Virus record (IMG/VR): IMGVR_UViG_3300025120_000044 | Coordinates: 1 to 62,901 of that record | Strand: one strand, 5' to 3' | Source: a virus | Taxonomy: Duplodnaviria; Caudoviricetes | Length of the DNA stretch: 62,901 nt | Shown: piece after piece, positions 1-61,291 of the stretch | Position numbering within the stretch: the first letter of the stretch is position 1 | How the letters are laid out: every line of letters begins with the position of its first letter | The notes under the pieces: model-generated | Databases searched by the model: none | The model's input: only the letters and a program-made list of their open reading frames with translations | What the model was told of the DNA's origin: nothing | Made by a program: the position numbers and the translations under genes

Positions 1-144
1 AAATATCCTGACCTACGGTATGCAGGTGGTGAATTTATATACAGCACTCAGAAAGGAATAGTTCGTACGTACGGACCGCGCCTGGCAGAAAATGTTATTC
101 AAGCGTTAGCAAGAATAGTTATTACTGACCAAATATTAGAAGTA
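1..144. repeat. Terminal direct repeat (assembly circularisation overlap), copy 1
   Basis: 1-144 matches 62758-62901 except position 18 (g) vs 62775 (a), a synonymous CGG/CGA change inside the polymerase ORF. Confidence 0.95.
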
Positions 145-327
145 CATAGACTGCCTGAAGTCGACGTAGTTCTACAGGTACACGATGAAATAATAGCATT
201 AGGCTCCGAAGTAAATTCAGATGTTACAATGGAGAAGATTATGAATATTATGAAAACCCCACCATCATGGTGTAGTGATTTACCACTTGATGCCGAAGGA
301 GGCGTTAGCCAGGTATATGACAAATAA
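1..327 (+). CDS. polA: C-terminal part of family A DNA polymerase (continues from 61288 across the junction)
   Basis: Frame 1 reads KYPDLRY...ENVIQALAR...VLQVHDEII (motif C)...LPLDAEGGVSQVYDK*. Not in the ORF track because it has no start codon in this segment. Confidence 0.92.
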   Translation, partial: KYPDLRYAGGEFIYSTQKGIVRTYGPRLAENVIQALARIVITDQILEVHRLPEVDVVLQVHDEIIALGSEVNSDVTMEKIMNIMKTPPSWCSDLPLDAEGGVSQVYDK

Positions 328-5500: not shown

Positions 5501-6169
5501 ATGTCAAACGATATTAGCGTAGTAACGAGCAAGGTTCCAGCTCATGTAAAAGAGGGATCAAAACTAGGTAATGAGAATGTTCAAACTGAACACATATCAG
5601 TGCCAAGGGTAAAGCTACTTCAAAAAATGAATAACGAAGTTGACCCAAATCATAGTGAACATATAGAGGGCTGTAAAGAAGGCGACTTTATAAACACTGT
5701 GACTGGCGAAAACTACGGTTCATCTATGTATGTAGTCAACACTCACTTCAAAGAAGAGTTTGTTGTGTGGAGAAAACGTGAAGAAGGTGGCGGACTTGTA
5801 GGGAACTTCCCAACAAGAGGTGATGCTGAAGACTATCTAAGTGAAAACAACTTAGAAATGACTAAGCATGACATCACGCAAACGCATATCCATACTTTAC
5901 TTCGTCTGGATGATAAGACGCAGGAAATATCTGATATACCTTTTCTATTTGATTGTGCTTCATCAAAGCTCAAAGTATCTAGAGAATGGAATACTAAGAT
6001 AATAAAACAAGCTGGAGATAGGTTCTCTTACTTGTGGAAGATGTCTTCAGTCCCGCAAAGTAATGCAAAGGGCTCTTGGGTCAACATAGACATTTCAGGT
6101 GTCGATTGGCTAAAAGACGATATTTACAAACAACTAAAATCTTTCTACGAAAGAACATTTGTTAAGTAA
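5501..6169 (+). CDS. Putative ssDNA-binding/annealing protein
   Basis: AGGAGG RBS before ATG 5501; PRVKLLQ...GDF motif; position in the replication module. Confidence 0.5.
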   Translation: MSNDISVVTSKVPAHVKEGSKLGNENVQTEHISVPRVKLLQKMNNEVDPNHSEHIEGCKEGDFINTVTGENYGSSMYVVNTHFKEEFVVWRKREEGGGLVGNFPTRGDAEDYLSENNLEMTKHDITQTHIHTLLRLDDKTQEISDIPFLFDCASSKLKVSREWNTKIIKQAGDRFSYLWKMSSVPQSNAKGSWVNIDISGVDWLKDDIYKQLKSFYERTFVK

Positions 6170-6233
6170 ATAATTACGTGCAATCAGGGTGCGACATTAT
6201 AGGTCGCATCCACGATTGTGTTACACTTAATAT

Positions 6234-6635
6234 GTGCGTGAAAAGGAGTTCATCAACAAAGTGCATCGACACTTATCTAAATCAATCTATCGTTGGAAAA
6301 TTAACGACGCTTATCACGGCGGCGTACCAGACACATTTTACTCAGGTCGCAATGGCCATTGTTTTATCGAGTACAAATATAAAGAAAAATTACCTAAAAG
6401 AGATTCGTCTCAAATTATTTTGAACTTATCTCCCCAACAAAGAGTATGGCTAACCCTTCAACATTCTAATAATGTTATATGTTATGCCGTGCTTGCCTCG
6501 AAAAATAAAGTTTTTGTAACCCAAGAATTTAATATGCCTGGCTTAACGCTAAAAGATTTTAATGAACAAAGTATTCCTTTTAAAGAATATATACAATTAA
6601 TAGAAAATATAACTATAGGAGAAACAAATGACTGA
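6234..6635 (+). CDS. VRR-NUC-like endonuclease / resolvase
   Basis: E..F...GVPD...FIEYK...LSPQQ..W pattern. Confidence 0.7.
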   Translation: MREKEFINKVHRHLSKSIYRWKINDAYHGGVPDTFYSGRNGHCFIEYKYKEKLPKRDSSQIILNLSPQQRVWLTLQHSNNVICYAVLASKNKVFVTQEFNMPGLTLKDFNEQSIPFKEYIQLIENITIGETND

Positions 6636-6888
6636 TTATGTAAACTCGCCACCTCATTATAATACCGGAAACGTGGAGTGCATCGTGGCAATAGAAGAAA
6701 GTATGACCCCAGAATCTTTTAAAGGATATCTAAAAGGAAACATTCAGAAGTATATGTGGAGGTATGAGGCCAAAAAAGGACTACAAGACGTCCTTAAAGC
6801 TCAATGGTACTTAAATAGGTTGATAAAAACACTAGAAAAAGAGCAATCAGTGTCTGACGCACAGGAAAGCCCGCCAGATAAATATTGA
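6628..6888 (+). CDS. DUF3310 (SaV-like / T7 gp1.7-like) protein
   Basis: VNSPPHY...ECI.AI...GN..KY.WR...K.G..D..KA.WYL signature. Confidence 0.85.
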   Translation: MTDYVNSPPHYNTGNVECIVAIEESMTPESFKGYLKGNIQKYMWRYEAKKGLQDVLKAQWYLNRLIKTLEKEQSVSDAQESPPDKY

Positions 6889-6924
6889 TTTAGTTGGACC
6901 TACGGCCTTAGTTACCCTAACAAA

Positions 6925-6950
6925 ACCTCATACAGAGCATTGTGTGAGGT
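6925..6950. terminator. Probable bidirectional terminator where the two genome arms converge
   Basis: acctcataca-gagcat-tgtgtgaggt 10-bp stem, flanked by an A-run on the left and a T-run on the right. Confidence 0.6.
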
Positions 6951-7195
6951 CATTTTTTGCCAGCTTTCTTATTTCTGGCGAAAGAACGGTTTTTTGCTCG
7001 TCTTACTACTTTTAAGTTAGATTTCTTATTGTTTTTAGGATTTCCGTCTTTATGGTGAACATCATTCCCATCTCCCTTCTTAATTAACCCTAACTTTTTT
7101 GCCATTCTATTAGCTGCATTACGCATTGCTCGCTTTTTTATTTGAGCAGGTTTGCCTTGGTAGTTCTTATATTCTTTTTTGTAGTCTCTTGCCAT
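6950..7195 (-). CDS. Small basic HNH-endonuclease-like protein
   Basis: DVHHKDGNPKNN..SNL......NR HNH motif; very K/R-rich. Confidence 0.7.
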   Translation of the reverse strand: MARDYKKEYKNYQGKPAQIKKRAMRNAANRMAKKLGLIKKGDGNDVHHKDGNPKNNKKSNLKVVRRAKNRSFARNKKAGKK

Positions 7196-8950
7196 CTAAA
7201 CAGTATACACCTTTAACTGTTCTTCTTTACCCTTTACACTTATAGTTCCAACATAAGTCATTTGGTCTAATACTTTATCGGCTGTAGTCTCTCCAATTAA
7301 TATATCTACTCCTGCATCCTTAGTAGCTGATTCTAACCGAGCAGCTACATTTACTGCGTCACCTATTGCTGAATAATCAAACCTAGAGTCCGAGCCCATG
7401 TTTCCTATAATTGCATCACCAGTATTTAATCCTATACCTATTGCTATTGGTTCGGGCAATTCTTTTTGCAACGTGCGTATAGCCGTACGCATATCTCGGG
7501 CACAGGCGACGGCACGTGATTCATGTTCATCTAAATTGAGGGGGGCATTAAAGATGGCCATACATGCGTCGCCTATGAATTTGTCCACCATACCACCGTG
7601 TGCCTGTATACATTCTACTTGTACGGTAAGGACCTTGTTCATTATTTCAGTTACTTGTTCTGGTTCTAGTTTTTCAGATAGGTTTGTAAACCCACGTACA
7701 TCAGTAAAAAGAAATGTACATGTCCTTCTTTCTCCCCCGAGCATTAACAAGTCAGGGTCTTTTTGTAGTCGTGCAACCTGGCGTGGATCCAGGTAATGCT
7801 CGAACTGTTTTTTAATTTGTTGTCTTAGTTTGTATTGTTCTCCAAAGCGTAACCAAAACTCTTGTACAGATATAAGTGTCATTGATATTACACTATAACT
7901 AAAATCTATAAGTATATTATTGCGTGCAAAATAGAATGCTAGAGCAATTGCACATACATACATAAACCCGACCCCCGCCATAGAACCTGCAACGGGTGCA
8001 TTACGTATTATAAGTATTAGTAATAATAGCGACCCTATTAATATAAGTAATTCGTATAGTAAAGCAGCCCCAGGTATCTGCGGTACATCCACAGTCATGC
8101 TTTCTGCTAAAGCCGCTTGTACTTGATGTGGGTACTTTAGTCCTGCGGGTGTTGCTATTTGAGGCATGATACCCTTAGCAGTTACGCCAACAAACACAAA
8201 TTTATCTGCAACATCCATTTCATCTAAAGTAGTCCTAGGCGTATCGACCCACGACACCCAACGTCTGCCTAAACCATCTACAGGTATCTGTGCATAATTA
8301 GGTACAGTAAGCTCTGCTATTTGTCCTTGGTCGGTTTTAATTATATAAGTATCTGCTCCCCCCATCATCTTCATAACTTCTATACCAAAAGAAGGTGTCC
8401 ACCCTCCTTCTGTTTGTACTAACAAAGGCAACCTACGTACTAAATTATCTACATCTGTTCGTGCAACTGCGATCCCTTGGTATGCAGAGTCTGCTAGCAC
8501 AGGAACATTACCTAACACTCCCTCACTTTTATAAGCCTCTACAGGTATGCCATCACCTAATACAACTGTGCCTGTAGTAGGCGGATAGTTACCATTTGGA
8601 TTTTCAAACATAGCAAGAACACTAGGGCTTTGTATAAGTACGTCTGCAAAAACTTGGTCGCCCCCAAATCTATCTTCTTGCGGAAAAGCAATAACCCAAC
8701 CTACACCTATGGCTCCTGCTTCTATAATATCTAGATGTATTCGTGCAAGGTCTTGTCGTGGGTAGGGCCACCCGCCCGAAACTGCTAAGTCTTCTTCTGT
8801 TATATCTAACGTGGTAAACCAACCAGATGGATCTGGCGTTTGCACGAGTGCATCAAATGTTTTTAGTTTTACTATTTCTAATGCTTGCCAATTAAATATT
8901 AAAGGTATTGCCAACAGTGGCACGGTTATTAAAGAAATCCATTTCTTCAT
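7196..8950 (-). CDS. Membrane CHASE2-domain class III adenylate cyclase
   Basis: N-terminal TM; CHASE2 motifs (GGWPYPR..LA, D..F...L, DVDNLVRRLPL, KFVFVG.TA, TPAG..YPHQVQA); three TMs; cyclase FTDVRGFT, DKFIGDA, GIGLNTG, GNMGS..RFDYSAIGDAVNVAARLE, VKGK. Confidence 0.93.
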   Translation of the reverse strand: MKKWISLITVPLLAIPLIFNWQALEIVKLKTFDALVQTPDPSGWFTTLDITEEDLAVSGGWPYPRQDLARIHLDIIEAGAIGVGWVIAFPQEDRFGGDQVFADVLIQSPSVLAMFENPNGNYPPTTGTVVLGDGIPVEAYKSEGVLGNVPVLADSAYQGIAVARTDVDNLVRRLPLLVQTEGGWTPSFGIEVMKMMGGADTYIIKTDQGQIAELTVPNYAQIPVDGLGRRWVSWVDTPRTTLDEMDVADKFVFVGVTAKGIMPQIATPAGLKYPHQVQAALAESMTVDVPQIPGAALLYELLILIGSLLLLILIIRNAPVAGSMAGVGFMYVCAIALAFYFARNNILIDFSYSVISMTLISVQEFWLRFGEQYKLRQQIKKQFEHYLDPRQVARLQKDPDLLMLGGERRTCTFLFTDVRGFTNLSEKLEPEQVTEIMNKVLTVQVECIQAHGGMVDKFIGDACMAIFNAPLNLDEHESRAVACARDMRTAIRTLQKELPEPIAIGIGLNTGDAIIGNMGSDSRFDYSAIGDAVNVAARLESATKDAGVDILIGETTADKVLDQMTYVGTISVKGKEEQLKVYTV

Positions 8951-9327
8951 TTTCTACTCCTTAGTTCTGTTGTCGAAAAAGAATGCTTACGGCTTGTATA
9001 AAAAACTTCGTGCATGCCTTTACCAGTAAAGTGTTTATCTGTGTAGTCTTCTCCTATAAATCTAATATCTATATGAGTACTGTTTAGTAAGTCTAGTAAA
9101 CTTTTTTCTGTGTCGTAAGGTATAACTTTATCTATATACTTAACTGCTTTTAGTTGAACATATCTTTCATAGATAGATTGAATAGGTTTATTTTTTTCTT
9201 GTCTGTCTAAAGAAGGGTCGGTTTGTAATCCGACTATAAGATATTTACAGTTTGCTTTAGCCTCTTTAAACATAACTACATGTCCTGCATGTAATAAATC
9301 AAAAGCTCCGCATGTAAATCCGATCAT
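8947..9327 (-). CDS. tagD: Glycerol-3-phosphate cytidylyltransferase-like (TagD family)
   Basis: GAFDLLHAGH (HxGH), VGLQTD, K.KP, ER, R..SFSTTELR. ATGA overlaps with both neighbours. Confidence 0.85.
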   Translation of the reverse strand: MIGFTCGAFDLLHAGHVVMFKEAKANCKYLIVGLQTDPSLDRQEKNKPIQSIYERYVQLKAVKYIDKVIPYDTEKSLLDLLNSTHIDIRFIGEDYTDKHFTGKGMHEVFYTSRKHSFSTTELRSRK

Positions 9328-10433
9328 CCTGATCCTTGTGTAATCGTTATAGTAGAGTCGCCCCCACCGTTTACTAACACTTGTTGTGTCTTACCATCCT
9401 GTAATAATATTATAGTATAGCCCTGCGATATGTTTAAGGTCAACTTAGTAGCCTGTGTCACTGCCCGTTCTAAAATAAGAGTATCGTCTTGTGTAAAAGT
9501 TGTTATCTGGGTAGTTAAGTCTTGGCCAAAGTTTGTACCCTGGACTAAAGAACCTGTAGCAAGAGCTTGATCCCCTAACGTGTCTAACTCTTGTATAACT
9601 GCAAGCAAGTCTTCAAAGAAGTTTACATCTAAGTAGTTTATATCGAGCTCACTAAATTCAAGAGAGTCTTCTGCTAAGTAATCAAACTTTAAGTCTTCAA
9701 ACTCCAGGTAGTCTATATCTAATATTGCACCACTATTTGCGGACGTTGTGGATATCTCTGTGGATAACTTTGATTTGTCCGGAGGACTTACAATCAGCAT
9801 GTTATCTATTATGTCTAACGTTAAATCTAAAATAACAGGTTTGCTTGGCGTAGACTCAAACACATTAACAGTCGTAGCTTCATAAGGCTTGTTTAGTGTT
9901 ACTGTACCCATTGCGGTAGTAACAAGTATCTCACCACTAGATACCCCGTTAGCATCTGGTAATAATATAATAAGGGACCGGCCTAGCTCATCTACTGTAC
10001 AAGTAAAATCTGTACCTCTTATCGCTATATCTGCCGTAGGTGTGGATAACGAGATGTTCTTTTTATCTATTTTTCCTAGCTTACTACTAACAAAACGTGC
10101 TGTGCCGTTAGCAAAACGCAAAGCCATCTTACCTTTAGATGGGTCAGGGTCATATACATACTCAGTAATTACAAGTTTTGAATGTTCTGTTAATCGGACA
10201 ATAGAGTCGTCCAGGAAGGTAATGCCTACACGTCCGTTAGTTGTACGAACGTCATCCATTTGTTGAATGTCGAAGTCTAACCTAGCACCATAAGGTTGAT
10301 CCCTTAGTACGCTAGCGTCTCCTTTTAGTTCTGATATACCACCAATATTAACAGCCGGTACTTGTTCCGCCGTCGTTTTGTATGACACAGACAGTACCAG
10401 AAGAACCAGTAGAAATAATTTTAAGCCAGTCAT
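9324..10433 (-). CDS. Secreted FecR-domain protein
   Basis: Signal peptide; D.VRT..GRVGITFLDDSIVRLTEHSKLVI...G..RF...TPTADIAIRGTDF FecR signature; acidic C-terminal region. Confidence 0.85.
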   Translation of the reverse strand: MTGLKLFLLVLLVLSVSYKTTAEQVPAVNIGGISELKGDASVLRDQPYGARLDFDIQQMDDVRTTNGRVGITFLDDSIVRLTEHSKLVITEYVYDPDPSKGKMALRFANGTARFVSSKLGKIDKKNISLSTPTADIAIRGTDFTCTVDELGRSLIILLPDANGVSSGEILVTTAMGTVTLNKPYEATTVNVFESTPSKPVILDLTLDIIDNMLIVSPPDKSKLSTEISTTSANSGAILDIDYLEFEDLKFDYLAEDSLEFSELDINYLDVNFFEDLLAVIQELDTLGDQALATGSLVQGTNFGQDLTTQITTFTQDDTLILERAVTQATKLTLNISQGYTIILLQDGKTQQVLVNGGGDSTITITQGSG

Positions 10434-11058
10434 TATCTAGTGTACTCTGTTGTTGTATGTTAAATGTTCTTGAACTTCCTGTTTGATCTAGGTAAAAATA
10501 CCCGCCGGCATATCCTGAGCCGTCAAATGTAACATTGTTAGAGTCACCGTCTACATCTACGTAAGATGTACCGCCATCATAGTTAATATCAAAATCAAAT
10601 GTATTACTAGAACCATTGATAATCCAGTCTAGGTCTAAAGTAGCAGCAAGTGCTGATGTGCCTACATTTAAAGTAAAGTCGTTGCTGTCACCTGTAACAT
10701 CTACATTGAAGTCACCATTGTCAGCTCCGTAGGTATTAGTAGGGTCTACTTGGATAGTGAAGTCATTACTGTCTCCATCAAACTCAAAAAAACCTGTAAA
10801 GTTATCAGCTAAGATGTCTCCTAAAAAGGTATTAGAACTACCTATTTGGTTTATATCTAAAGTCATAGTGCCTCCGTCGAGGTCAAGAAAAGTCATCGAA
10901 CCAGCGGTAGCGTTTAGCCCACCTATGATATTTCCAGAGCCTAATTGTTCTAGGTCTAAGTTTAGTGTGGCACCAGCCTGGTCTACATATATCTCGTTAT
11001 CAGCCGCGTATAGCGGTAACACAAGCATCATCGCAATCAATATTTTTAAATTTTTCAT
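10348..11058 (-). CDS. Secreted curlin-like (CsgA/CsgB-like) repeat protein
   Basis: Signal peptide ending LYA-ADNEIYVDQAG; about 8 imperfect repeats of (Q/D/N/T)-x-G-(S/D)-S-N-x-F-x-h; directly downstream of csgG. Confidence 0.7.
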   Translation of the reverse strand: MKNLKILIAMMLVLPLYAADNEIYVDQAGATLNLDLEQLGSGNIIGGLNATAGSMTFLDLDGGTMTLDINQIGSSNTFLGDILADNFTGFFEFDGDSNDFTIQVDPTNTYGADNGDFNVDVTGDSNDFTLNVGTSALAATLDLDWIINGSSNTFDFDINYDGGTSYVDVDGDSNNVTFDGSGYAGGYFYLDQTGSSRTFNIQQQSTLDNDWLKIISTGSSGTVCVIQNDGGTSTGC

Positions 11059-11860
11059 CTATACTCCAATAGCCTGCTTTTGTACCTTCCTTGATTATCT
11101 GCAGAACTGCTGTTTCTATGGCGGCTCTTAAAGCCAATCCTCCGGACTCGTTTCTTACAACACCACTCTCTATCTCGACTAGTTCTGTATTATCAGAAAT
11201 AAATCGAAAAACATCGTTACTTAATGAGGCACTTAGTATTGTCTTTGTTACTAATGTCTCTAGTAAAACTTTTCCTGATGTAACAGACACTAATCTAAGT
11301 TGTACTGTTACCGAATCTCTTCTGTAAGCTTTGGTTGCGCCAAGGCCTAAGTAACGTGCTCCGGCACCTCCAGATGTAACGTTACCCTCATATCCTATCA
11401 CACCTCCCTCTATAATTAAACCAGCGAACAAAAGGGCCCCTAGTTCTGCGCCCTCATCTTTTTGTTCTCTAGTGCTTCGTATGATCTGACGTTCCTTAGT
11501 TAAGTTATCGAGGCCTACTCTCTCTACTACCGTGAAAAATCCACCGTTATCAGAACCAGCCTTATGCAAAGCTCTTATAAGATAAGCACTTGGGAGTTGT
11601 GTTATAGCAGTAGAGAAAGAAGCATAGCTTGAATTACTTAGTCTTTGTCCGGTTTGGTCTGTAAAACCTGTAGGGTATACAGCTACTACGGGTTGTCGTT
11701 TTGGTATGCCAACAGAAGCAAGATTAGATACTGCTAGTGTTTCTATTTGTGCATTTTCTATTCTTTGAATTGGACCTAGGTTGTTTTCTATGGGGTCAAA
11801 AATTAAAGAAGCGCAGCTAGAAAGTAAAGCTACCGATAGGAATTTGGATAATTGTTTCAT
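11000..11860 (-). CDS. csgG: Curli secretion channel lipoprotein CsgG
   Basis: Lipobox LLSSC; VAVY..F.DQTGQR, FSTAITQ, F.VVERVGLDNLTKERQIIRSTR, IIEGGVIGYE.N..SGGAGARYLGLG...YR.D.VTVQLRLVSV.SG.VL. Confidence 0.93.
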   Translation of the reverse strand: MKQLSKFLSVALLSSCASLIFDPIENNLGPIQRIENAQIETLAVSNLASVGIPKRQPVVAVYPTGFTDQTGQRLSNSSYASFSTAITQLPSAYLIRALHKAGSDNGGFFTVVERVGLDNLTKERQIIRSTREQKDEGAELGALLFAGLIIEGGVIGYEGNVTSGGAGARYLGLGATKAYRRDSVTVQLRLVSVTSGKVLLETLVTKTILSASLSNDVFRFISDNTELVEIESGVVRNESGGLALRAAIETAVLQIIKEGTKAGYWSIDEKFKNIDCDDACVTAIRG

Positions 11861-12359
11861 TTCCTTCTGCGTCCACTATGGTTAAAGTTATTATGCCGTC
11901 CAATACACTATAGGTAATAGTATTACCCTCTAACTCAATTGTACCATTGTCACTTGGTGTTTCTCCAAACAAAGCTTCTACTAACTGCCTAGACAACTGA
12001 GCATATATCCTCGATTCTAAATTACGGATAAACCTAGCTAGTGTTGTGTTTTCCTTATCTCTTTCTATTTGATCTTGTAAAGCTTTAATCTCTGCTTTAA
12101 TAGACATTTTTCTTGTGTACTCAACGTTGTCTATAGTCAGATAGTGGCTAGAAGTATTTTCTCCGCTAAAAGAGGGTGACTTAAATTTATGAGTCATTTG
12201 GTCTGCTCGTAAGTTCTGTGTCAGTATGCCTATAATTAAAGCAACTCCTACAGCCATAACAAACCATATAAGTTTATCTTTTTCAGCTTCTTCTTTTGCT
12301 CTTTGTATATCAAGCTTGCTTGGTCTACCTACTTTTCTTTTAATCTTTTCTTTGGTCAT
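11817..12359 (-). CDS. csgF: Curli assembly protein CsgF-like
   Basis: Hydrophobic signal then A-DQMTHKFKSPSFSG, F..NLESRIYAQLSRQL, and a beta-rich C-terminus ending I.IP; adjacent to csgG. Confidence 0.85.
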   Translation of the reverse strand: MTKEKIKRKVGRPSKLDIQRAKEEAEKDKLIWFVMAVGVALIIGILTQNLRADQMTHKFKSPSFSGENTSSHYLTIDNVEYTRKMSIKAEIKALQDQIERDKENTTLARFIRNLESRIYAQLSRQLVEALFGETPSDNGTIELEGNTITYSVLDGIITLTIVDAEGNETIIQIPIGSFTF

Positions 12360-12690
12360 TTCTATCTGCTTTAGCTATCTTGTTGCTATCAATAAGCTGC
12401 GGCACTCCTAAAATAGTTTTAATTAACGTGTCTTGTCTAATGATTTCATTGTCTAAACTACGTATTCTATCTATTAATGCTACTAGTATTCCGTGCTGTG
12501 AGTCAAGTTTTGTACCTAGTCTAAGTTCCATAGCGGTTATTTGTTCTGCTACTTTTTCATCGACTACGTCTAATTTAGTCTCCATACCGTCGACTATTCG
12601 CATTATTAATTGATATATAAACCAACCTAGACCTAACGCTGCTGCTATAGGAAAACCAACCTGCTGGATAACAGTTACGATATCACTCAT
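12340..12690 (-). CDS. Single-TM coiled-coil membrane protein (holin/YvrJ-like N-terminus)
   Basis: IQQVGFPIAAALGLGWFI TM segment followed by a coiled coil; overlaps the csgF start. Confidence 0.5.
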   Translation of the reverse strand: MSDIVTVIQQVGFPIAAALGLGWFIYQLIMRIVDGMETKLDVVDEKVAEQITAMELRLGTKLDSQHGILVALIDRIRSLDNEIIRQDTLIKTILGVPQLIDSNKIAKADRNDQRKD

Positions 12691-13172
12691 TCTTTGTCGC
12701 TAGTATTGGAGGCCCCAAAATAAAAGGATATGACTGCGGATGCTAAACCACCTAAATAGCCTAGCACTAAATTAATTAGGGCCTCGCTGTTTTGTTCGGG
12801 TGGTTGTAGGGTAACTAAAAATATATAACCCATAAACCCACCTACGACTGCTATACCCATAATACGGGCGGTCCAGTCTTTAGAAAAATGCTTACGTGCG
12901 TCTTGTTTTTCTTCTGCCTCAAGTTTGTAGATATCTACATCAAGCTGTTTCATCTTTGCTTCAAAGTCTGCTTCAGCTTTTTTAATTTCTAATAATTGTT
13001 CTGGGGTTGCTGCAGCTATGCCTTTTTCTAAAGCTGCTGGAGTATTTTCTACGCCTAAAACTTTTGATATAACATCACCCGCCATACCACCCAATGGGCC
13101 ACCTAGTGCAGTTCCTAATGTTGGAGCTACGCTCCCTACTATGTTAGCTAATAACTTCTTCATATTTTCCAA
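12687..13172 (-). CDS. Putative holin (3TM family)
   Basis: APTLGTALGGPLGG glycine zipper, D..ARK, two TMs and the SFYFGAS terminal motif. Confidence 0.65.
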   Translation of the reverse strand: MENMKKLLANIVGSVAPTLGTALGGPLGGMAGDVISKVLGVENTPAALEKGIAAATPEQLLEIKKAEADFEAKMKQLDVDIYKLEAEEKQDARKHFSKDWTARIMGIAVVGGFMGYIFLVTLQPPEQNSEALINLVLGYLGGLASAVISFYFGASNTSDKE

Positions 13173-13566
13173 GCTTTAACAGCTCCTCCTTGTTTGCTAA
13201 GTGCTCCGCTTCAATATCATCTTTGCTTTGGCCTGTGTAAGCAACAGCAAGATAATTATTAATAAGCGCTTGGTTTAGATCTACGTCATCTGCAACGATA
13301 ACGCCTAGAACTCTGCCGAACTTCCCTTTCTTGTCTAGTTTTGTTTGTATGACTAAATTGTCAGCGTGTAAAATACTTGTAGATAAAAATTGAGAAGCCA
13401 ATTTTCCTCTAGCTTTTTCGTCTAGGTCACGTGTTCGTGATTCTGGTGTGTCGATCCCATATAAACGTACACGAGATTTATAAACTATATCAAAGCCCAA
13501 ATCTATTTCAGCATCTACGGTATCACCGTCTACAACTCTGGTTATATTACATCTATACTCGTACAT
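13144..13566 (-). CDS. Thermonuclease (SNase-like)
   Basis: RVVDGDTVD, RVRLYGIDTPE, GKFGRVLG, LN..L.....A..Y. Confidence 0.88.
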   Translation of the reverse strand: MYEYRCNITRVVDGDTVDAEIDLGFDIVYKSRVRLYGIDTPESRTRDLDEKARGKLASQFLSTSILHADNLVIQTKLDKKGKFGRVLGVIVADDVDLNQALINNYLAVAYTGQSKDDIEAEHLANKEELLKLGKYEEVIS

Positions 13567-13757
13567 TACTTACCCACTTTAGATTGTGCTTTTTTATGAG
13601 CTTGTCTCATAGTGTCGCCCGAAAGCATACGCCTTTTCATAAACTTCATATGCCCAGCAGTATGGTGCTTGGAATGCCTTTTAAGAGATGCCTCTTGTCT
13701 TTTAGTAAGAGCTTTTTTCTTTATAGGTTTTTTTGCTGTTTTTCGTTTATATGCCAT
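13566..13757 (-). CDS. Small basic protein
   Basis: 63 aa, K/R/H-rich; stop overlaps the next start (TAATG). Confidence 0.6.
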   Translation of the reverse strand: MAYKRKTAKKPIKKKALTKRQEASLKRHSKHHTAGHMKFMKRRMLSGDTMRQAHKKAQSKVGK

Positions 13758-13768
13758 GTCTTATATTA

Positions 13769-14098
13769 TCACGTTCCGTCCATTTCTGCATAGCCATAAA
13801 GCTGCCAGGTATAAAAGCCATCTAGGTCTGCAGTGGTTGTACCTGCTTTAAACCAATCTATTTGTTGTTGTTCTGTAACATCTCTACAAGCAACAAAAGA
13901 ATCTGGCAACGCACCTTTCAAAAGTGAATGATGAGCTAGTGCACGTTCTTCTCTTGTTGTTATAGTTTTAGTGTTGTCAGCCTGATCTATAGCTGTGATA
14001 TCTACAACTACTGAATCAACCACAGGTACTCCTGTTTCTGTTACAGCTACAGTTCTACTTACAAAAGCATAAGTATAATTAAAATTATGCAGTGCCAT
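13769..14098 (-). CDS. Hypothetical tail-fibre-associated protein
   Basis: ORF in the contiguous late operon downstream of the tail fibre. Confidence 0.5.
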   Translation of the reverse strand: MALHNFNYTYAFVSRTVAVTETGVPVVDSVVVDITAIDQADNTKTITTREERALAHHSLLKGALPDSFVACRDVTEQQQIDWFKAGTTTADLDGFYTWQLYGYAEMDGT

Positions 14099-14618
14099 CT
14101 AATACTCCAGCTAAAGCTCTTCGGCTGTTTGGGTATACACCTTTGCAATACATATCTCTCCAGTAGTTATAAGAACTAGGTGCTTCGTTGTATTGTACTT
14201 TGTACAACCCTGAAATAATTTGTTGGCTTGTAACGGTTTCATCTAGTGTTACGACACTGTTTTCTGTTTTTCTATAACTTTGCCAAGTTCTTAATTTATA
14301 AAAAGATTCAAAGCCGCCTTGGTATGTAAAAGTGTTGTTTACATAAAAAATATCTACGAGTTGTTTGTGTTCAAACCCTAAGCGAATACCTTCTCTTAAT
14401 AGATTTTTTAATTCTGTGTTAGTTGTAATCGAACCTGTTACTATTATATCTGCGTCCCAAGTCTCAGTATTAAATAACGCATCCCCTGCTAAATAATTAT
14501 AACTGTCAAAACCTGCTACCTTTTTAAAGTCATCATACCAAGCATTTAGCTTAGTCTTATCTGGCCTTTCCCAAGGCGTAGTTGTTGTTATATCGCCTAT
14601 TGTAAATGAAAAACTCAT
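14085..14618 (-). CDS. Hypothetical protein, possible Pol-beta-superfamily nucleotidyltransferase fold
   Basis: YLAG...TWDADIIV (G-x8-DxD) and a later VDIF; weak resemblance. Confidence 0.4.
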   Translation of the reverse strand: MSFSFTIGDITTTTPWERPDKTKLNAWYDDFKKVAGFDSYNYLAGDALFNTETWDADIIVTGSITTNTELKNLLREGIRLGFEHKQLVDIFYVNNTFTYQGGFESFYKLRTWQSYRKTENSVVTLDETVTSQQIISGLYKVQYNEAPSSYNYWRDMYCKGVYPNSRRALAGVLDGTA

Positions 14619-17600
14619 TAGCTTGGGCCTCCTCCGCCACCGCCACCGCCGCCGCCGGTAGATGTAGTAGTAACTTTAAAGTCATCTGTTATATCTGTAA
14701 TAGTTAGTGTAGCAGTTCTAGCAAGACCCGCACTACTTGCGCTTGTTACTCGTAGAGAAATAGTGTCACCTGATTGAACAGTAGCTGAGCCTGTTACATA
14801 AGTGCCGCTGTTTATACTCATCTTAGCAGTGCTGTCACCAGTAAGTACAGCTGTACCACCAGAAAATCCATTCCCTGAAAGCGTTATGGTATTAGATGTA
14901 AACACTGTATTTTGTGCAACACTACTTTGATTACTAAATGTAAATTGAGAAGGTTGGTTAAGTGCAAGTCTCTGGAATGCATATTCTACTTTTGTTAAAA
15001 ACCTAGTTCCGCCGTCGCCTTGGGCATGTATATATACATGAGCAGGGGCACTAGTACCACTTCTTTTTATAAAGGTAACTGGTATCTGGGCTATAGCAGT
15101 AGTAGTTTGGAACCTAGCTATACCAGCCCAAAACTCTGCTCTATTAGAATGATATTGTAATCCTCCAATATCGGTCATAGGCAGAGCGCTGCCGTATACA
15201 CCTAAATCAATACTGTTCGGGTTATTATCGTATGCATCAGCTGCTCCCGACAGTTGTGTACCTGAACCAGTTGCTGAATAAGTACCGTCTCCACAACAAA
15301 TACTTAAAGATTTAACTTGGCCAGTACCACCAAAGACTCTTACATAGCCCATATAAATACCACGTTCTGTTCCTATTTCTCCTACCTGAGCTAGTCTCAT
15401 GTCGTTGTTAGCGAAGCCACCAATAGTACTACCTGATACAACTCTATTTATAGTAGGTAGTACAAGATCAGTAACATTAATACGGTCAGCATTAATTAAA
15501 CCAGTCGTGATACGCGAACCGTCGATCGTGGTTGATCCACTCGAACCTAGGTCCGAAGACACTATGAGGTCTGAATCTAAAAATGCGGCATCAATATTGC
15601 CTGTGGTTATATTACCCCCGTGTATTACTGTGCTGGTATTAGCAGATAGGTCCGTAGATTTTATAAACTGAGCATCGATACGTGCAGCATTTATAGTACC
15701 TGCTGTTATACGTGCAGCATCCATACCGCCAGTTGTAATCTTGTCCGCTGATAACGTCCCAACCTTTGCATTGGTTATAGTACCGTCCTTAATTCTAGCT
15801 GTGTCTATATATACAACACCCGAGTCCACAATAAATGGAGCTACAGAGTTAGTAGAAGAAGCACCCGACCCATCCCATATAGCAAACTTGTCTGCCTGGA
15901 ACTGTACGGCTGTACCCGTACCAGAGTCAGAAGCATTAGCTTCAATAACCATACCAGCAACAGCACCGTTAGCATTTACTTGCAGTACATACGCTGCAGC
16001 TGCATTGCCTTCTATGTCCGTAACAGCTGAAGATAGAGCAGTAACACTGGCGTTTGTAGTTACATCACGTATAAGCACCCAGTTGCTGCCATCCCACCTA
16101 TATTGTTTATTACTGTCGTTTGTATCAAACCAAATATCACCTGTGTTTATGGCCGTTGGTGGGTCGTTTTGTGTAAATACTCTTGGGTAATTATCATTAG
16201 CTGTATCTCTGACCGCGACCCAGTTGCTACTTCCTGTGCCAGTAGCTCTGTACAATTTATTAGCATCATCACTATCTATCCATAGATCACCTGCTGCTAA
16301 CGCATTAGGAGCACTTGTTCCTATAAAGGTTTTGTTTTTTGTAGCAATAGAAGCATTGACTCCGGTTATTGCCGCAGCTCTTGCACTTGTTTCATCAGAG
16401 ATAGCTGTCTGATTAATAGTTATATCTGCAGCGTTGCCATCTACATCTGTTCGCAGATTTGATATAAGAGTGGCATGAGCCGAGGTTAAACTGTCTCTTA
16501 TACTTTGCCAGTTACTGCCATCCCATCTGTATAATTGTTTGTCATCTGTATCTACCCACAAGTCCCCTATTGTAAGACCCGAAGCACCAGGTGCAGTTGC
16601 TTGACTAAAGTTCACAGGTATAGCAGTTACAGTAGTTTCTAATTGGCTAACAGCATTAGCAGTTGCAGCTACACCAGTTGTGCTATGGTCTACAGTAGTC
16701 TCTAAAGCATCTATTTTAGTAGAAGTAGAGCCACTTAAGCCTACGGCTGTAGATAAATTAGATACAGCAGTGGCATTTGCAGCTACTCTTGTATCTACAA
16801 CGGCTACCCAAGCGCTACCACTCCATCTATATTGTTTATTAGCATCATCTGTATCAAACCAAAGGTCGCCTTCTTGTGATCCAGTAGGCTGTGATGTTTG
16901 AGCGTGGACCGTGATCCCTGAAGTATCGTTCACGGCCACCCAGTTGCTATTACCAGCTGCAGTTGCACGATACAGTTTATTACTGTCGTCTGTATCTATC
17001 CATAAATCACCAATAGAGATGGCAGTCGGTGCTGAAGTAGATACAAAGGTTTGTGTTTTAGTATTTACTGTACCTGATAAAGAAGTAATAGAGCTATTTG
17101 TAGCAACTATATCATCTTCGTTATCTTCTACCCTTGAAGTTAAAAGACCTACTGCAGTGTTTATAGCACCTACTCCAGTTGTGCCATTATTAACTGTAGT
17201 TTCTAAGTTAGTTATTTTAGTAGAACTTGAACCAGACAAACCTACAGCTGTAGATAGACTAGATATAGCGGTTGCGTTAGAAGTTAAACGTGTGTCATCA
17301 ACAGCTACCCAGGCACTGCCGTTATAGCGATATTGTTTATTGTTATCATTAGTGTCAAACCACAAGTCACCTGCATTTACTCCTGTAGGTTCATTGTCTT
17401 GTGAATGTATAGCTATACCAGAAGTATCGTTTACGGCTACCCAGTTACTACTACCGACCGCAGTTGCACGATACAACTTATTGTTATCGTCTGTATCTAT
17501 CCAAAGGTCGCCAATAGCTGTAGCAGTTGGTGCTGAAGTTCCTACAAAGGTTGTTACTTTACCGTCTGCTTTTGCATCTGCAGTAGCTGCGTTTGACAAT

Positions 17601-23727: not shown

Positions 23728-25575
23728 TTACAGTATATCGCCTTTGTACCTCTGTGACCATATAGTAAGACTGTACTTAGTGCCTTCAATAAGTTCTACA
23801 CATTCGTGTGGGTGTGTTACTTGTCCTGGGAATAAAAGCAGTTTACCTACAGGTATATCAGCGTTACTTATATTCTGCCTAGGGAAAATTAACTCGCCAC
23901 CTTTATAGTTTTTATTTAATTTTACTGAGCCCGTTACGTGCGAAGAGTCATGGTGTAGAGCTAATTTAGTTTGTGAATCTGTAGAATACTTAAGCATAAA
24001 AGCATCTCTTACACCGTCTACAACTAATGGGTTCCAGTATCTTTCTATAATAGGTTTAACTTTTGCTTGCCAATGTTCTTCTAGTTCTTCGTATAACCCT
24101 AATTGTTTTAGTCTTATCTCTTGTGCTGGGTAACTATCTAAAGGTAAACTTTGCCACTCTCCCCATTGTTCTGCTATTTCTATCATTCTTTGGCATTGAT
24201 GTTCTGACATAAAATCAACAATAAGCATATCTTTGTCTAATACTTCACACTCATCATTAGGTGTGTGAAATAAATTTTGAGGTGTTGAGTACATTTGATT
24301 GTAGATACGCTCAAAATTAACCTTAGCATTATCATCTCCATTGCCGTGATATACACAGGGGCAACAAGTAGTTTCTTGATTCCATAACTGGGTACCTAAC
24401 ATCGTTATATTAGGCTCGTGACACTGAAATATATAAGCTTCTATATCTAATCCTATGTCATAAATACCTTCTAGATATGCTTGTTGGTAGAAAAGTTGGT
24501 CATCTTGATGGTCTTCTATAGGCCCATGAGCTAATATTTTTTTTATTTCGCCCACTTCACCTATAAACGTACCAGAATTAAGATATCTATACCTGGTATG
24601 TGAGGATGGAAACTGGTTACCTATGCTAGGATCAGGCCAACACACTTCTTCTGCAGCAAAAAGTACTTTATGCCCCATGTCTAAGTACCTTTCTTTGATT
24701 GTTTCTAAGCTATCTGCATAAAAAACATCGTACGAATCTGTGAAGAGTAAAATATCCGTGTCCGCAAGTTCTCCTATGTTCTGTTTTAGTATGTTTACTT
24801 TCTGTCCACCACCTGGACCTGTCATATCTGTACCTTTCCACTCCACACCAAAACCCCAATTGGTAATTGTTATGTCATGTTTAGAAGCAGACTGGTATAG
24901 CCTCTTCATTTTATTGACGTCTGTGCCTATCGTTACTACGTGTATTGTCATATCTCTCCTATCGTTACGTATGTCAGAGGGTAGCACATCTGTAGTCGCT
25001 TGGTTGCAAGAGTCTTCCTGCAAGGCAAGAGCCATAAGACTACCCTCTCTGATTTGTTCAGGTATATACTCGTCTACTGGTATTATACCTTCTTCCATTA
25101 TATTAGTATTTAAAAGCTTTCGTGCACCTTTTGGTGAGATCACATACGCCGTTGTGTTGTATGGGTACCAAGGTCTTTCTAGTCTATCAGATACTTTTAT
25201 AGTGTTCTCTGGTTCGTTTTCATTGCGTTGTAGGTACAGTAGGTCCCAGTACCCTATTGTGTGGTCATAAAAAGGTTCGTCCCATCTATCTACATTTATA
25301 ATGGCATCGTCTTCTATTACATATATAGGTTCATTTAACTCTATACATTTTTGCCACATTTTTCTATGTGATAAGAAACAAGCTATTTCTGTAGGAACAA
25401 TACCTCTATTTTGAAATGGGTCTATCCACCCTGGTCTAGTTTTATAGTTAGATAAATCTTGTGCTAAACCGTCTACAGCTTCTACAAATGTGTAGTCTTT
25501 TAGTGTTGTATTTTTTGCTATAAAGTGCTGTCTGCGTTCAGGCCTACTCTTTAAATTAATTACAAATTTTTGCAT
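23728..25575 (-). CDS. Three-domain collagen-modifying enzyme: GT25 (COLGALT-like) + PLOD-type glycosyltransferase + lysyl-hydroxylase-like 2OG-Fe(II) dioxygenase
   Basis: GT25: INL..RPERR, EAVDG, EIACFLSH, EDDA, WDLLYL, AYVIS..GARKLL, PVDEYIP. PLOD-GT: GGGQKV, FTDSYD, FAAE..CWP, YLNSGTFIG, DDQLFY, HGNG. Hydroxylase: HHDSS, Y.GG...F, FPG..THPHE, GTKY. Confidence 0.88.
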   Translation of the reverse strand: MQKFVINLKSRPERRQHFIAKNTTLKDYTFVEAVDGLAQDLSNYKTRPGWIDPFQNRGIVPTEIACFLSHRKMWQKCIELNEPIYVIEDDAIINVDRWDEPFYDHTIGYWDLLYLQRNENEPENTIKVSDRLERPWYPYNTTAYVISPKGARKLLNTNIMEEGIIPVDEYIPEQIREGSLMALALQEDSCNQATTDVLPSDIRNDRRDMTIHVVTIGTDVNKMKRLYQSASKHDITITNWGFGVEWKGTDMTGPGGGQKVNILKQNIGELADTDILLFTDSYDVFYADSLETIKERYLDMGHKVLFAAEEVCWPDPSIGNQFPSSHTRYRYLNSGTFIGEVGEIKKILAHGPIEDHQDDQLFYQQAYLEGIYDIGLDIEAYIFQCHEPNITMLGTQLWNQETTCCPCVYHGNGDDNAKVNFERIYNQMYSTPQNLFHTPNDECEVLDKDMLIVDFMSEHQCQRMIEIAEQWGEWQSLPLDSYPAQEIRLKQLGLYEELEEHWQAKVKPIIERYWNPLVVDGVRDAFMLKYSTDSQTKLALHHDSSHVTGSVKLNKNYKGGELIFPRQNISNADIPVGKLLLFPGQVTHPHECVELIEGTKYSLTIWSQRYKGDIL

Positions 25576-26051
25576 TAGTTAAAATCTGTGGCTACCTCTA
25601 CGTCATAGTTCCAAGCATTTATGTTCATAGATACTCTTTCGCCGCTTTGTATAGGTGTTACTTTATGTTCTAACCCAGGACCAAACATGACAAGTCTATT
25701 TGACACTGGTGTTATACGCATATTGTTTTTAAATATAAGTTCGCCGCCTACTAAATCTTTTACATGTGGATAAAAAACTATAGAACATATAGGAAAATGG
25801 CTTTGTCCTGTCTTAAAAAAAGTCTGCTCATCTCTATCTTGGTGCCAATCTGGCATACCATTTCTATGAAACCATATGTCATAGCCTACTTGATTATCAA
25901 AGTTAAAATAATTACCAGCTGTCTGGGTTAAACGTCTAGCAACTATACCGTTGTCATGTTCTTCTTCTTTTTTAAAATAAGTGTGTTTGTTTTGACTGTT
26001 TACAGTCTCTAAAGTTTGAGGGTAAAAGACTTTATCTATTACTATAATCAT
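25575..26051 (-). CDS. 2OG-Fe(II) oxygenase
   Basis: WHQD (HxD), GGELIF, NRLVMF, HKVTP...GERVS. Confidence 0.85.
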   Translation of the reverse strand: MIIVIDKVFYPQTLETVNSQNKHTYFKKEEEHDNGIVARRLTQTAGNYFNFDNQVGYDIWFHRNGMPDWHQDRDEQTFFKTGQSHFPICSIVFYPHVKDLVGGELIFKNNMRITPVSNRLVMFGPGLEHKVTPIQSGERVSMNINAWNYDVEVATDFN

Positions 26052-26605
26052 TTAAACTTCGGTCCTTCTATCCAGGCTACTAAAGATTTACGTACGCCGC
26101 TAGTTACGGGCTCCACTGTATGTCGTATTGGAGAAGGAAAGCAAAATACTGTACCGCGTTGTACTAACGCAATAGGGTCGGGTTGTTCATACATAGGATC
26201 TAAAAGAAATCGTCCCCCTTTATATTCTGTAGGGTCGCTAAGTTGTATTGTTACGCTTATTTTTCTGTCAAAAGAAGTATGACCTGCCCAAAAAGTATCA
26301 TGGTGCCAATCATAGTAGCCTTCATCTGTACCTTTATATATAGTGTATTGAATATCTTCTAGATAAGAAATGTCAAAACCAAAAGCTTGTCTATTAGCTC
26401 TAGTAGCAAAGCTATAAACAAGTTTGTTTATCCACTCTACCTGTCCTGCCCATCTTACTTCAGATCTCCGTATGCTTGTATTTACATTAGAATCTGTAAG
26501 ACCTACATTAGCTTCCATAGGCTGTAGCTTTTCACATTCTTCTATTATTTTGTTGCAAGTAATAGGCGTTATGCCTCTTTCCCACATTTGCCAAAGTGAA
26601 TTCAT
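26048..26605 (-). CDS. 2OG-Fe(II) oxygenase (prolyl-hydroxylase/PKHD-like)
   Basis: RRSEV, YDWHHD, RKISVTIQLSDP.EY.GG, FPS...HTVEPVTSGVRKSLVAW. Confidence 0.9.
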   Translation of the reverse strand: MNSLWQMWERGITPITCNKIIEECEKLQPMEANVGLTDSNVNTSIRRSEVRWAGQVEWINKLVYSFATRANRQAFGFDISYLEDIQYTIYKGTDEGYYDWHHDTFWAGHTSFDRKISVTIQLSDPTEYKGGRFLLDPMYEQPDPIALVQRGTVFCFPSPIRHTVEPVTSGVRKSLVAWIEGPKFK

Positions 26606-26619
26606 AACACCTCCTGTGT

Positions 26620-30591
<3,972 letters not shown>

Positions 30592-61109: not shown

Positions 61110-61291
61110 AATATCCTACTAATCAAATAGACTTTGATAACTTACAAATTAACATCGTTGATCAGTTTTTAATTAGAACATGTAAAGACGAACTTGCAGT
61201 CGATCAGCTACAAGCTTGGGACAGAATAAAAGACCTTGCTCGCAAAGGTATGGTTGCAGAAAAATACACAAAAGAATGGGAACAAAAATGA
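61106..61291 (+). CDS. Hypothetical protein
   Basis: GGAGG RBS; ATGA overlaps on both sides. Confidence 0.55.
   Translation: MKYPTNQIDFDNLQINIVDQFLIRTCKDELAVDQLQAWDRIKDLARKGMVAEKYTKEWEQK

Follow-up and report, generated by a model that had tools for sequence, protein, structure and literature searches.

A podovirus cassette of CsgF, CsgG, a curlin-like subunit, a FecR-fold protein and a CHASE2 adenylate cyclase: a probable further copy of the pelagiphage type VIII secretion cluster

The "pelagiphage type VIII secretion" cassette was described by Wittmers et al. (2022, mSystems, PMC9599517) as a gene cluster with the order HK-CsgF-CsgG-CsgA/B-FecR-(second CsgA/B)-AC in podo- and myo-pelagiphages, HK standing for a histidine kinase and AC for an adenylate cyclase. 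The paper assigns this cluster to nine podovirus genomes of HTVC023P type as well as to pelagimyophages, reports that a second curlin gene and the adenylate cyclase are frequent after FecR, detects the cluster at all 65 GOV2.0 stations with additional metatranscriptome hits, and holds that it likely stems from Alphaproteobacteria and has passed from one viral family to another; FecR, HK and AC are stated not to be part of bacterial type VIII secretion system (T8SS) operons. Here we analyze a run of genes of this kind at positions 7196-12690 of the virus record IMGVR_UViG_3300025120_000044 (Duplodnaviria; Caudoviricetes), the whole 62,901-nucleotide (nt) stretch of which is referred to as the window. 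The cassette in the window is very probably another copy of the six-gene, horizontally mobile cassette of Wittmers et al.; it is an already known system and not a new discovery.

The resemblance to the published cluster is close: the window has the same genes in the same order, an optional gene before the cyclase, and neither CsgE nor CsgD. The published carriers are marine podoviruses of 58.8 +/- 2.5 kb and 42 +/- 6% GC, plus T4-like pelagimyophages, and the window has 62.9 kb and a GC fraction of about 0.39-0.40. It differs from the published description in having a TagD-like nucleotidyltransferase in the slot of the second curlin gene, and in that no domain support is found here for calling the small membrane protein a histidine kinase. 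In two cultured phages, HTVC008M (KC465899, 7562-13807) and Melnitz (MZ577097, gp98-104), the six core genes stand in the same order and encode proteins 30-46% identical to those of the window; unlike the window, both have T4-like myovirus backbones and a second Curlin_rpt protein in the slot, and their DNA similarity to the window is limited to 98 nt. Their GenBank records annotate CsgF, CsgG, curlin-associated, FecR-domain, second curlin and adenylate/guanylate cyclase genes. A preliminary description of this DNA had stated that csgF and csgG alone were reported in such phages, and had known of no phage module combining the pore, a candidate substrate and a cyclase. Since the whole set is annotated in HTVC008M and Melnitz and the module is described by Wittmers et al., the claim of novelty fails. 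The Melnitz paper (Buchholz et al. 2022, PMC9004378) discusses CsgGF alone, as a possible lysis pore, and neither "cyclase" nor "FecR" occurs in its main text; "cyclase" is likewise absent from the available text of Zaragoza-Solas 2020 (PMC7029224). Among the matches listed for pelagiphages and curli from 2022 onward are PMC9599517 and PMC9004378 plus an unrelated review.

Seven open reading frames (ORFs), all on the minus strand, make up the region (Table 1), and each overlaps the next, by 20, 44, 59, 86, 4 and 4 nt from first to last, confirming the overlapping gene run of the preliminary description. Domains were called with Pfam, reporting at E<=0.01, and with NCBIfam and PHROG profile searches; hydrophobic segments come from a hydropathy heuristic, which is not a topology predictor. 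Of the earlier protein labels, CsgF, CsgG, FecR and the CHASE2 cyclase stand, and those of curlin and TagD soften.

Table 1. Genes of the cassette in the window, from first to last on the minus strand, followed by the features at its borders
Feature	Position	Strand	Evidence
Core gene 1: 116-aa bitopic membrane protein	12340..12690	-	one N-terminal hydrophobic segment, helical tail; phrog_18771
Core gene 2: CsgF homologue	11817..12359	-	PF10614, E 1.9e-16; phrog_35372, E 1.4e-41
Core gene 3: CsgG lipoprotein, predicted pore	11000..11860	-	PF03783, E 7.5e-46; LSSC lipobox
Core gene 4: predicted secreted curlin-like beta-solenoid subunit, 236 aa	10348..11058	-	signal peptide; AlphaFold2 model; family matches
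Core gene 5: predicted Sec-exported FecR-fold protein, 369 aa	9324..10433	-	PF04773, E 1.1e-10; signal peptide
Accessory insert, not core: 126-aa "TagD-like" cytidylyl/adenylyl-transferase-family protein	8947..9327	-	PF01467 (CTP_transf_like), E 4.6e-16
Core gene 6: CHASE2 + transmembrane block + predicted class III adenylate cyclase, 584 aa	7196..8950	-	CHASE2, E 6.8e-26; Guanylate_cyc, E 5.6e-22
Upstream neighbour, not core: 161-aa membrane protein, holin-like by architecture	12687..13172	-	phrog_1544, E 8.8e-27
Downstream neighbour, closing the minus-strand arm: HNH-like protein, 81 aa	6950..7195	-	PF13392 HNH_3, E 1.1e-5; phrog_4590
Hairpin + T run, terminator-like, 11 pairs; convergent gene arms meet	6925..6950	.	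terminator scan

The secretion half begins with csgF, directly upstream of csgG, which it overlaps by the 44 nt given above. CsgF scores 60.9 bits against PF10614 (cut-off 25.8) over residues 40-174, and its hydrophobic segment at 27-52 would fit an export signal; a phmmer search with it against PDB sequences matched no CsgF, which the Pfam profile does detect. CsgG scores 156.5 bits against PF03783 (cut-off 20.8) and matches the solved Escherichia coli CsgG structures over residues 46-272 (E 3.2e-38); its lipobox ends at Cys16, a residue invariant in 15/15 aligned sequences. Alignment of the constriction-loop region to E. coli CsgG finds the Phe kept and Ser at two other positions, which we take to be those of Y51 and N55 in the E. 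coli protein. A search of the window for CsgE (PF10627) gave no match at E<=0.1, bearing out the earlier remark that none was recognised. CsgE is also missing from Alphaproteobacteria according to PMC9599517, so that it does not define such systems outside Gammaproteobacteria.

The repeat protein encoded after CsgG has a signal peptide visible in its sequence, and its AlphaFold2 model (predicted local distance difference test, pLDDT, 86.9; predicted template modelling score, pTM, 0.83) is built of about eight strand-turn-strand repeats. Eight of the 34 members of its family match Curlin_rpt (PF07012) at E<=0.01 (best E 7.9e-8), and the sole match of the family profile among PDB sequences (E<=10) is the curlin-repeat protein 8c50_A, at E 2.2e-4. 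This same chain, CsgA of Pontibacter korlensis, heads a structural search of 48,161 chains with the window model (Z 18.8, 202 aligned residues, 24% identity). The window copy itself matches Curlin_rpt at a sub-threshold 7.7 bits (E 0.42), has no Pfam family at E<=0.01 and scores 19.1 bits against NCBIfam CsgB, the cut-off of which is 165; Foldseek of the model against the PDB returned assorted beta-helices only, none at E<=0.001. The curlin relationship of the window copy thus rests on its family, its own sequence being below the Curlin_rpt threshold. Taken together, sequence and model indicate a secreted curlin-like beta-solenoid subunit, a predicted family-level homologue of curlin repeats; the earlier call of a curlin-like repeat protein holds at the level of family and fold, and does not hold for the individual sequence, which stays under the Pfam threshold.

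The next core protein scores 42.3 bits against the FecR family PF04773 (cut-off 24) over residues 60-149. It starts with a 22-residue signal-peptide-like segment and has no other hydrophobic segment. In its model, a beta domain at the N terminus is followed by an acidic stretch of low confidence (214-294) and then by a small beta domain at the C terminus. Residues 57-218 superpose on the C-terminal cell-surface signalling domain of PupR (6ovk_R; Z 15.4, root-mean-square deviation (rmsd) 2.5, 138 aligned; Foldseek E 9.4e-5), and the model also matches the periplasmic domain of BDI_1681. In the FecIRA and PupIRB systems, that fold binds the signalling domain of the outer-membrane partner. The likeness to these systems is one of periplasmic fold; no cytoplasmic anti-sigma domain and no membrane anchor are found in the phage protein, which therefore shares the fold but not the regulator architecture. 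No sigma factor or TonB-dependent transducer turned up among the ORFs scanned generally, no dedicated search having been made. These features of sequence and model point to an exported adaptor rather than an iron regulator. A weak likeness (Z 7.5, rmsd 2.2, 72 aligned, 26% identity) also links its residues 27-121 to 5ix9, a "cell surface anchoring domain" of 76 residues, and may reflect a common beta arrangement only. A curlin-like nature of the C-terminal domain was considered and rejected, as hhalign against the curlin-like family alignment gave a probability of 0.5%.

The last core gene encodes a protein that scores 91.8 bits against CHASE2 (PF05226, cut-off 26.3) over residues 13-311 and matches Guanylate_cyc over residues 410-582; hydrophobic segments at the N terminus (1-24) and at 291-343 flank the CHASE2 region, ahead of the catalytic domain. 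Six residues, D417, D461, K457, D525, N534 and R538, are invariant in 33/33 aligned cyclases; presumably D417 and D461 bind metal, K457 and D525 form the adenine-specifying Lys/Asp pair, and N534 and R538 act on the transition state. Such a Lys/Asp pair specifies ATP in class III cyclases. Because all six catalytic residues are kept, the enzyme is predicted to be an active adenylate cyclase. We assign its sensor, from the profile match, to a CHASE2 domain, which adds to the annotation of the 2022 paper: CHASE2 is named 0 times in the available text of PMC9599517.

The 116-amino-acid (aa) membrane protein at the head of the cassette is probably the "HK" of the 2022 paper, a label for which domain support is lacking here. 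It matches no Pfam or NCBIfam family at E<=0.01, and no kinase domain is found in any of the 23/23 members of its family even at E<=1, where 20 weak families are listed; moreover it is too short to be a kinase core. Its Atlas neighbours are all viral hypothetical proteins, and it is 30-31% identical to its counterparts in HTVC008M and Melnitz. Two contigs show another arrangement, in which two tandem copies of the small-membrane-protein gene follow, rather than precede, the cyclase (L090, 5862-8235; L091, 9001-11374); L091 has a FecR-domain match about 7 kb upstream.

The order of the core genes is conserved among viruses. A cyclase-seeded scan of IMG/VR gave at least 595 confirmed relatives out of at least 599 pattern matches, and a CsgG-seeded scan at least 577 confirmed out of at least 598; the best 80 loci were used in each case. 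Both sets consist of the closest relatives of the window proteins, so the fractions describe this lineage and not all phages. All six core genes, co-directional and in the same order, are present in 30/30 cyclase-seeded loci with at least 5.6 kb of upstream flank, the small membrane protein heading the cassette in 30/30 loci with enough flank. FecR lies upstream of the cyclase in 56/56 cyclase-seeded loci with at least 1.3 kb upstream, and the repeat protein plus FecR lie downstream of CsgG in 58/58 CsgG-seeded loci with at least 2.1 kb downstream; the cyclase is kept in 39/42 CsgG-seeded loci with at least 4.6 kb downstream. FecR thus tracks the secretion half (58/58) more faithfully than the cyclase does (39/42). 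In the loci L219, L244 and L247, the cassette ends after FecR with no cyclase within 5 kb, and in L244 the holin-like phrog_1544 directly follows FecR.

The gene between FecR and the cyclase does not belong to this conserved core. A "TagD-like" gene is present in 5/80 cyclase-seeded loci and the gap between FecR and the cyclase exceeds 150 bp in 12/72; among the slots examined, some are empty and others hold this nucleotidyltransferase, alone or together with an FkbM-type methyltransferase, or a C5 DNA methylase. In myovirus-type loci, HTVC008M and Melnitz it is filled by a second protein with bona fide Pfam curlin repeats (E 1.9e-4 to 4e-17). In HTVC008M (L001, 6658-7983) this second protein has, in addition, a PA14 domain (E 2.7e-6), of a type that commonly goes with the binding of carbohydrates. 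Over 8910-9200, the contig depth in two DNA runs is 0 and 2.7, with covered flanks and loose ends at 9269 and 9303, consistent with absence of the insert from related strains in those samples. The TagD-like gene is therefore a strain-variable passenger (moron) in a FecR-cyclase hot spot, and not the module member it had been taken for, unrelated genes occupying its slot in other loci. Its name is a family-level call: from sequence, membership of the superfamily PF01467 is retained, whereas both equivalog cut-offs are missed, at 67.9 bits against g3p_cytidyltrns (TIGR01518, cut-off 165.4) and, slightly higher, 72.1 bits against rfaE_dom_II (cut-off 181.5).

The window is a complete 62.9-kb podovirus-type genome with a CheckV completeness of 100. 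Its DNA polymerase ORF (61216-62901 and 1-327, plus strand) runs off both window ends, as expected of a circularly permuted complete genome. The nearest cultured relatives by capsid are the Pseudomonas phages KPP25/phiR18 (54% identity); by the terminase TerL they are Aeromonas phiA008 (54%), KPP25 (41%) and, from the HTVC023P lineage of Wittmers et al., Pelagibacter phage HTVC023P (37%), all of these being pairwise identities. Size and GC would fit the HTVC023P lineage, but the terminase is less close to it than to phiA008 and KPP25, and the carrier is therefore only a candidate member of the published clades. It is a KPP25/phiA008/HTVC023P-like marine podovirus, and the cassette accounts for about 9% of its genome. 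Upstream on the same strand are the genes for terminase, portal, major head, tail fibre and internal virion protein, so the cassette closes the distal end of the structural arm; as the preliminary description had it, this is the end of the late arm, which meets the convergent plus-strand arm at the hairpin at 6925-6950. The region holds hardly more terminator-like sites than expected (6 versus 5.3), which is no enrichment of the class, and promoter and terminator scans showed no enrichment over shuffles. A tRNA search of the window found none. An independent DNA run, made in a different study, has contigs that tile 6000-13605, across both borders and into phage genes, with a sole break at 8898-9283 over the TagD-like gene. 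The cassette is hence a real, conserved phage unit and, as far as contigs can tell, not an assembly chimera; the chimeric host insert that had been named as a possible refutation is not seen. One DNA run contains a joint from 8867 to 14634 (side 21, depth 5) with low support.

Relatives of the two halves exist separately in bacteria. Bacterial curli loci (E. coli csgBAC/csgDEFG and alphaproteobacterial loci) share with the window a related CsgG and the order csgF then csgG; they differ in that CsgE is missing from the window and that FecR and a CHASE2 cyclase are attached in the phage version only. In a sample of 401 alphaproteobacterial genomes, which as a sample is no proof of absence, a close CsgG homologue is found in 7/401, with csgF directly upstream in 7/7 and curlin-like repeat proteins near CsgG in 3/7. 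The phage cyclase profile is matched at E<=1e-40 by 210/401 of these genomes; a FecR-domain ORF lies within 1.5 kb in 5/30 best CHASE2-cyclase loci and in 4 more of 20 loci (from the 25 remaining) extended to about 6 kb, and neither CsgG nor CsgF is matched in these 30 loci. In the 5 closest pairs, FecR ORF and cyclase are divergently oriented, in contrast to the shared direction of the phage genes. The full cassette was not found in this sample, and within the genomes sampled the secretion half and the FecR/CHASE2 half are joined only in phages.

An exported FecR-domain protein next to a CHASE2 sensor is a recurrent bacterial arrangement. In Burkholderiales a LysM-FecR protein adjoins a CHASE2 histidine kinase in the Burkholderia BiofilmReg operon (PMC5192318), and in Campylobacterota the cluster of a CHASE2 adenylate cyclase also encodes FecR-domain, phosphodiesterase and TPR proteins (PMC9239204). 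The phage pair resembles them in encoding an exported FecR-domain protein beside a membrane sensor with a periplasmic CHASE2 domain, and the Campylobacterota pair also in its output, a class III adenylate cyclase. Unlike the phage cassette, the bacterial clusters as described have no CsgG or CsgF, their partners being LysM, response regulator, phosphodiesterase and TPR proteins. A further scan of genome contigs with two peptide patterns gave 26 loci, of which nine are phage-like (L084-L092) and the rest matched the catalytic domain only; three bacterial loci scanned with Pfam proved to be one two-partner secretion (TPS)/CHAT/CHASE2 cluster and two MASE10 cyclases, with no CsgG or FecR. The nine phage-like contigs are binned in metagenome-assembled genomes (MAGs) of Neomarinimicrobiota, Pelagibacter, Parvibaculum, Vicingus, Flavobacteriaceae, Rhodobacteraceae and Rickettsiales and hold cyclases 32-77% identical to the window copy; 6/9 also hold other cassette genes or the holin-like phrog_1544. 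As these contigs look phage-derived, we take them neither for bacterial homologues nor for evidence of hosts. The TPS/CHAT/CHASE2 cluster, in a Rhizomicrobium MAG (L095, 256-11296), has its CHASE2 cyclase preceded by a two-partner-secretion exoprotein of 1304 aa and a CHAT/TPR protein and followed by an MscS-type channel with a cyclic nucleotide monophosphate (cNMP)-binding domain, a candidate receptor of cyclic AMP (cAMP); it is another CHASE2 cyclase adjoining a secreted beta-helical protein.

We propose that the cassette would be transcribed together with the late structural arm, as its shared strand and overlapping ORFs suggest. RNA-library contigs fall on the cyclase, FecR, curlin-like, CsgG, CsgF and small-membrane-protein genes, but they are weak evidence because carry-over of DNA is not excluded; the runs cover small shares of the stretch (0.07-0.14), and such contigs reveal nothing of transcription, strand or transcript ends. 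The host Sec and Lol machineries would place the lipoprotein CsgG, with CsgF, in the outer membrane, where by homology the two would form a pore; the curlin-like subunit would be exported through it and would polymerise on, or coat, the surface of the infected cell. The FecR-fold protein would remain periplasmic, serving the secretion part as an adaptor that binds proteins; in cassettes that have the cyclase, it would in addition feed the periplasmic CHASE2 domain, so that the state of secretion or of the envelope would set cytoplasmic cAMP synthesis; we thus infer a trans-envelope cAMP signal running through FecR to the cyclase. A host cAMP receptor would read the signal, and it is invoked because the phage encodes no cNMP-binding domain. 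Candidate purposes are a surface coat against superinfection, aggregation, and control of lysis timing. The mechanism of export, FecR adaptor and cAMP as a whole is a tentative proposal, to which we give somewhat less than an even chance; for identity and mechanism taken together, belief and doubt are in balance.

Several observations weigh against this proposal. Both viral surveys lean towards close relatives, the best 80 of about 600 candidates each. FecR is kept without the cyclase in 3/42 CsgG-seeded loci, which speaks against a strict FecR-to-cyclase dependence and implies that the cyclase is dispensable for whatever the pore, subunit and FecR do; PMC9599517 likewise states that neither AC nor FecR is a constant member. 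With flanks of up to 10 kb, the 7 alphaproteobacterial CsgG loci contain no FecR or CHASE2-cyclase match (0/7), so the joining of the two halves has no cellular precedent in the sample. To these are added the lack of CsgE and of any encoded cNMP-binding domain in the window, the sub-threshold Curlin_rpt score of the repeat protein, the large rmsd (9.0 A) of its superposition on 8c50_A, and the generic beta-helices that come next in that search, with Z 16.3 at best. In the case of Melnitz, neither cytograms nor transmission electron microscopy showed clumping, according to its authors (PMC9004378).

A more specific form of the proposal is that the FecR-fold protein physically bridges the CsgG/CsgF pore, or the emerging fibre, to CHASE2, so that pore occupancy or surface contact would be turned into cAMP. 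We consider such a bridge doubtful, and with it the fuller account of a phage-built trans-envelope sensor, in which a bacterial T8SS has been fused to a bacterial FecR/CHASE2 pair with which the phage would time lysis or block superinfection. This account is consistent with the three-part FecR protein (FecR fold, acidic stretch of ~80 residues and small C-terminal beta domain), with the weak resemblance of model residues 27-121 to 5ix9, and with the two halves being unjoined in the sampled bacterial loci. A complex prediction for CHASE2 (24-297) and the mature FecR-fold protein (23-369) gave a score of 0.08 and a mark of 0.32, which counts neither for nor against it.

The position of the cassette at the very end of the late arm, a frequent site of podovirus lysis genes, raises the main rival explanation, namely a lysis-timing device in which CsgG, perhaps with CsgF, has been repurposed as a permeabilising or gated outer-membrane pore that the other genes modulate, as has been proposed in print for Melnitz (Buchholz et al. 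2022, PMC9004378). It is favored by the holin-like phrog_1544, which abuts the cassette on one side or the other in 39/80 loci (directly upstream of the small membrane protein in 13/80, directly downstream of the cyclase in 26/80), and by weak Atlas leads, with scores under 0.9, from the small bitopic protein to holin/releasin-type clusters. However, a bare pore needs neither the curlin-like subunit nor FecR, both kept with CsgG in 58/58 loci; some 8.6 kb separate the cassette from the one endolysin recognised (PF00959, 21311-21763), and the holin assignment of phrog_1544 is a lead only, the window protein having two C-terminal hydrophobic segments, no Pfam match at E<=0.01, and one near Atlas cluster (score 0.96) with GTA_holin_3TM on 11% of its members. 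We judge this explanation rather unlikely. Wittmers et al. and, reportedly, Zaragoza-Solas 2020 raised the idea that an ungated CsgG pore serves as an uptake channel admitting nutrients or cofactors to the periplasm of the infected cell, on which the FecR-fold protein and the cyclase would report. The lack of a CsgE in the window fits this idea, which is discussed in PMC9004378 and PMC9599517, but it leaves the strict retention of the curlin-like subunit and CsgF unexplained, and the cassette has no transporter-like or small-molecule-binding-protein-like gene; we regard it as improbable.

A ferric-citrate-type regulator, tying the cassette to iron status, would agree with the Pfam FecR domain, with the structural match to the periplasmic domains of PupR and BDI_1681, and with the FecR label used in PMC9599517. 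Against it stand the cleavable-type signal peptide and the missing anti-sigma domain and membrane anchor, so that only a periplasmic protein-binding fold is shared, and the bacterial FecR proteins beside CHASE2 are likewise secreted and are not anti-sigma factors (PMC5192318, PMC9239204); iron regulation is therefore very improbable. To an artefact, whether a chimeric assembly or a host fragment in a viral contig, we give next to no credence, given the gene order shared by all 30 independent viral contigs of sufficient flank and by two phage lineages in culture, the contig tiling across the region except at the TagD-like insert, and the flat GC content.

Beyond the cassette, the HNH-like gene comes after the cyclase in many close relatives as well. 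Further up the structural arm, on the same strand, a tail-fibre ORF at 26620-30591 (1323 aa) has many collagen-like repeat matches, such as phrog_1806, "collagen like minor tail", and a GC fraction of 0.47-0.55 versus about 0.39 elsewhere. At 23728-26605 (minus strand) lie three 2-oxoglutarate (2OG)-Fe(II) oxygenase-type ORFs in a row, of 615 aa (phrog_61), 158 aa and 185 aa (PF13640); 2OG-Fe(II) oxygenases are among the "partner" auxiliary metabolic genes (AMGs) of this phage group in PMC9599517. In the structural arm, an ORF of 2360 aa at 32508-39590 (minus strand) has no assignment beyond weak PHROG matches of its C-terminal part to virion structural proteins (E about 1e-9).

As the finding itself is not new, its value is a sharper annotation of the cluster: a CHASE2 sensor on the cyclase, an exported FecR adaptor, an unsupported "HK" label and a passenger "TagD". 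With HTVC008M (on Pelagibacter HTCC1062) and Melnitz (on OM43 H5P1) as carriers in culture, the signalling hypothesis is open to experiment. The cassette is predicted to equip curli-less hosts with a complete outer-membrane pore for secretion, together with a fibre-like subunit and an enzyme for a second messenger; if this is true, phages would remodel the surface and rewire the cAMP level of some of the most abundant marine bacteria during infection, with a bearing on aggregation, superinfection and carbon export.

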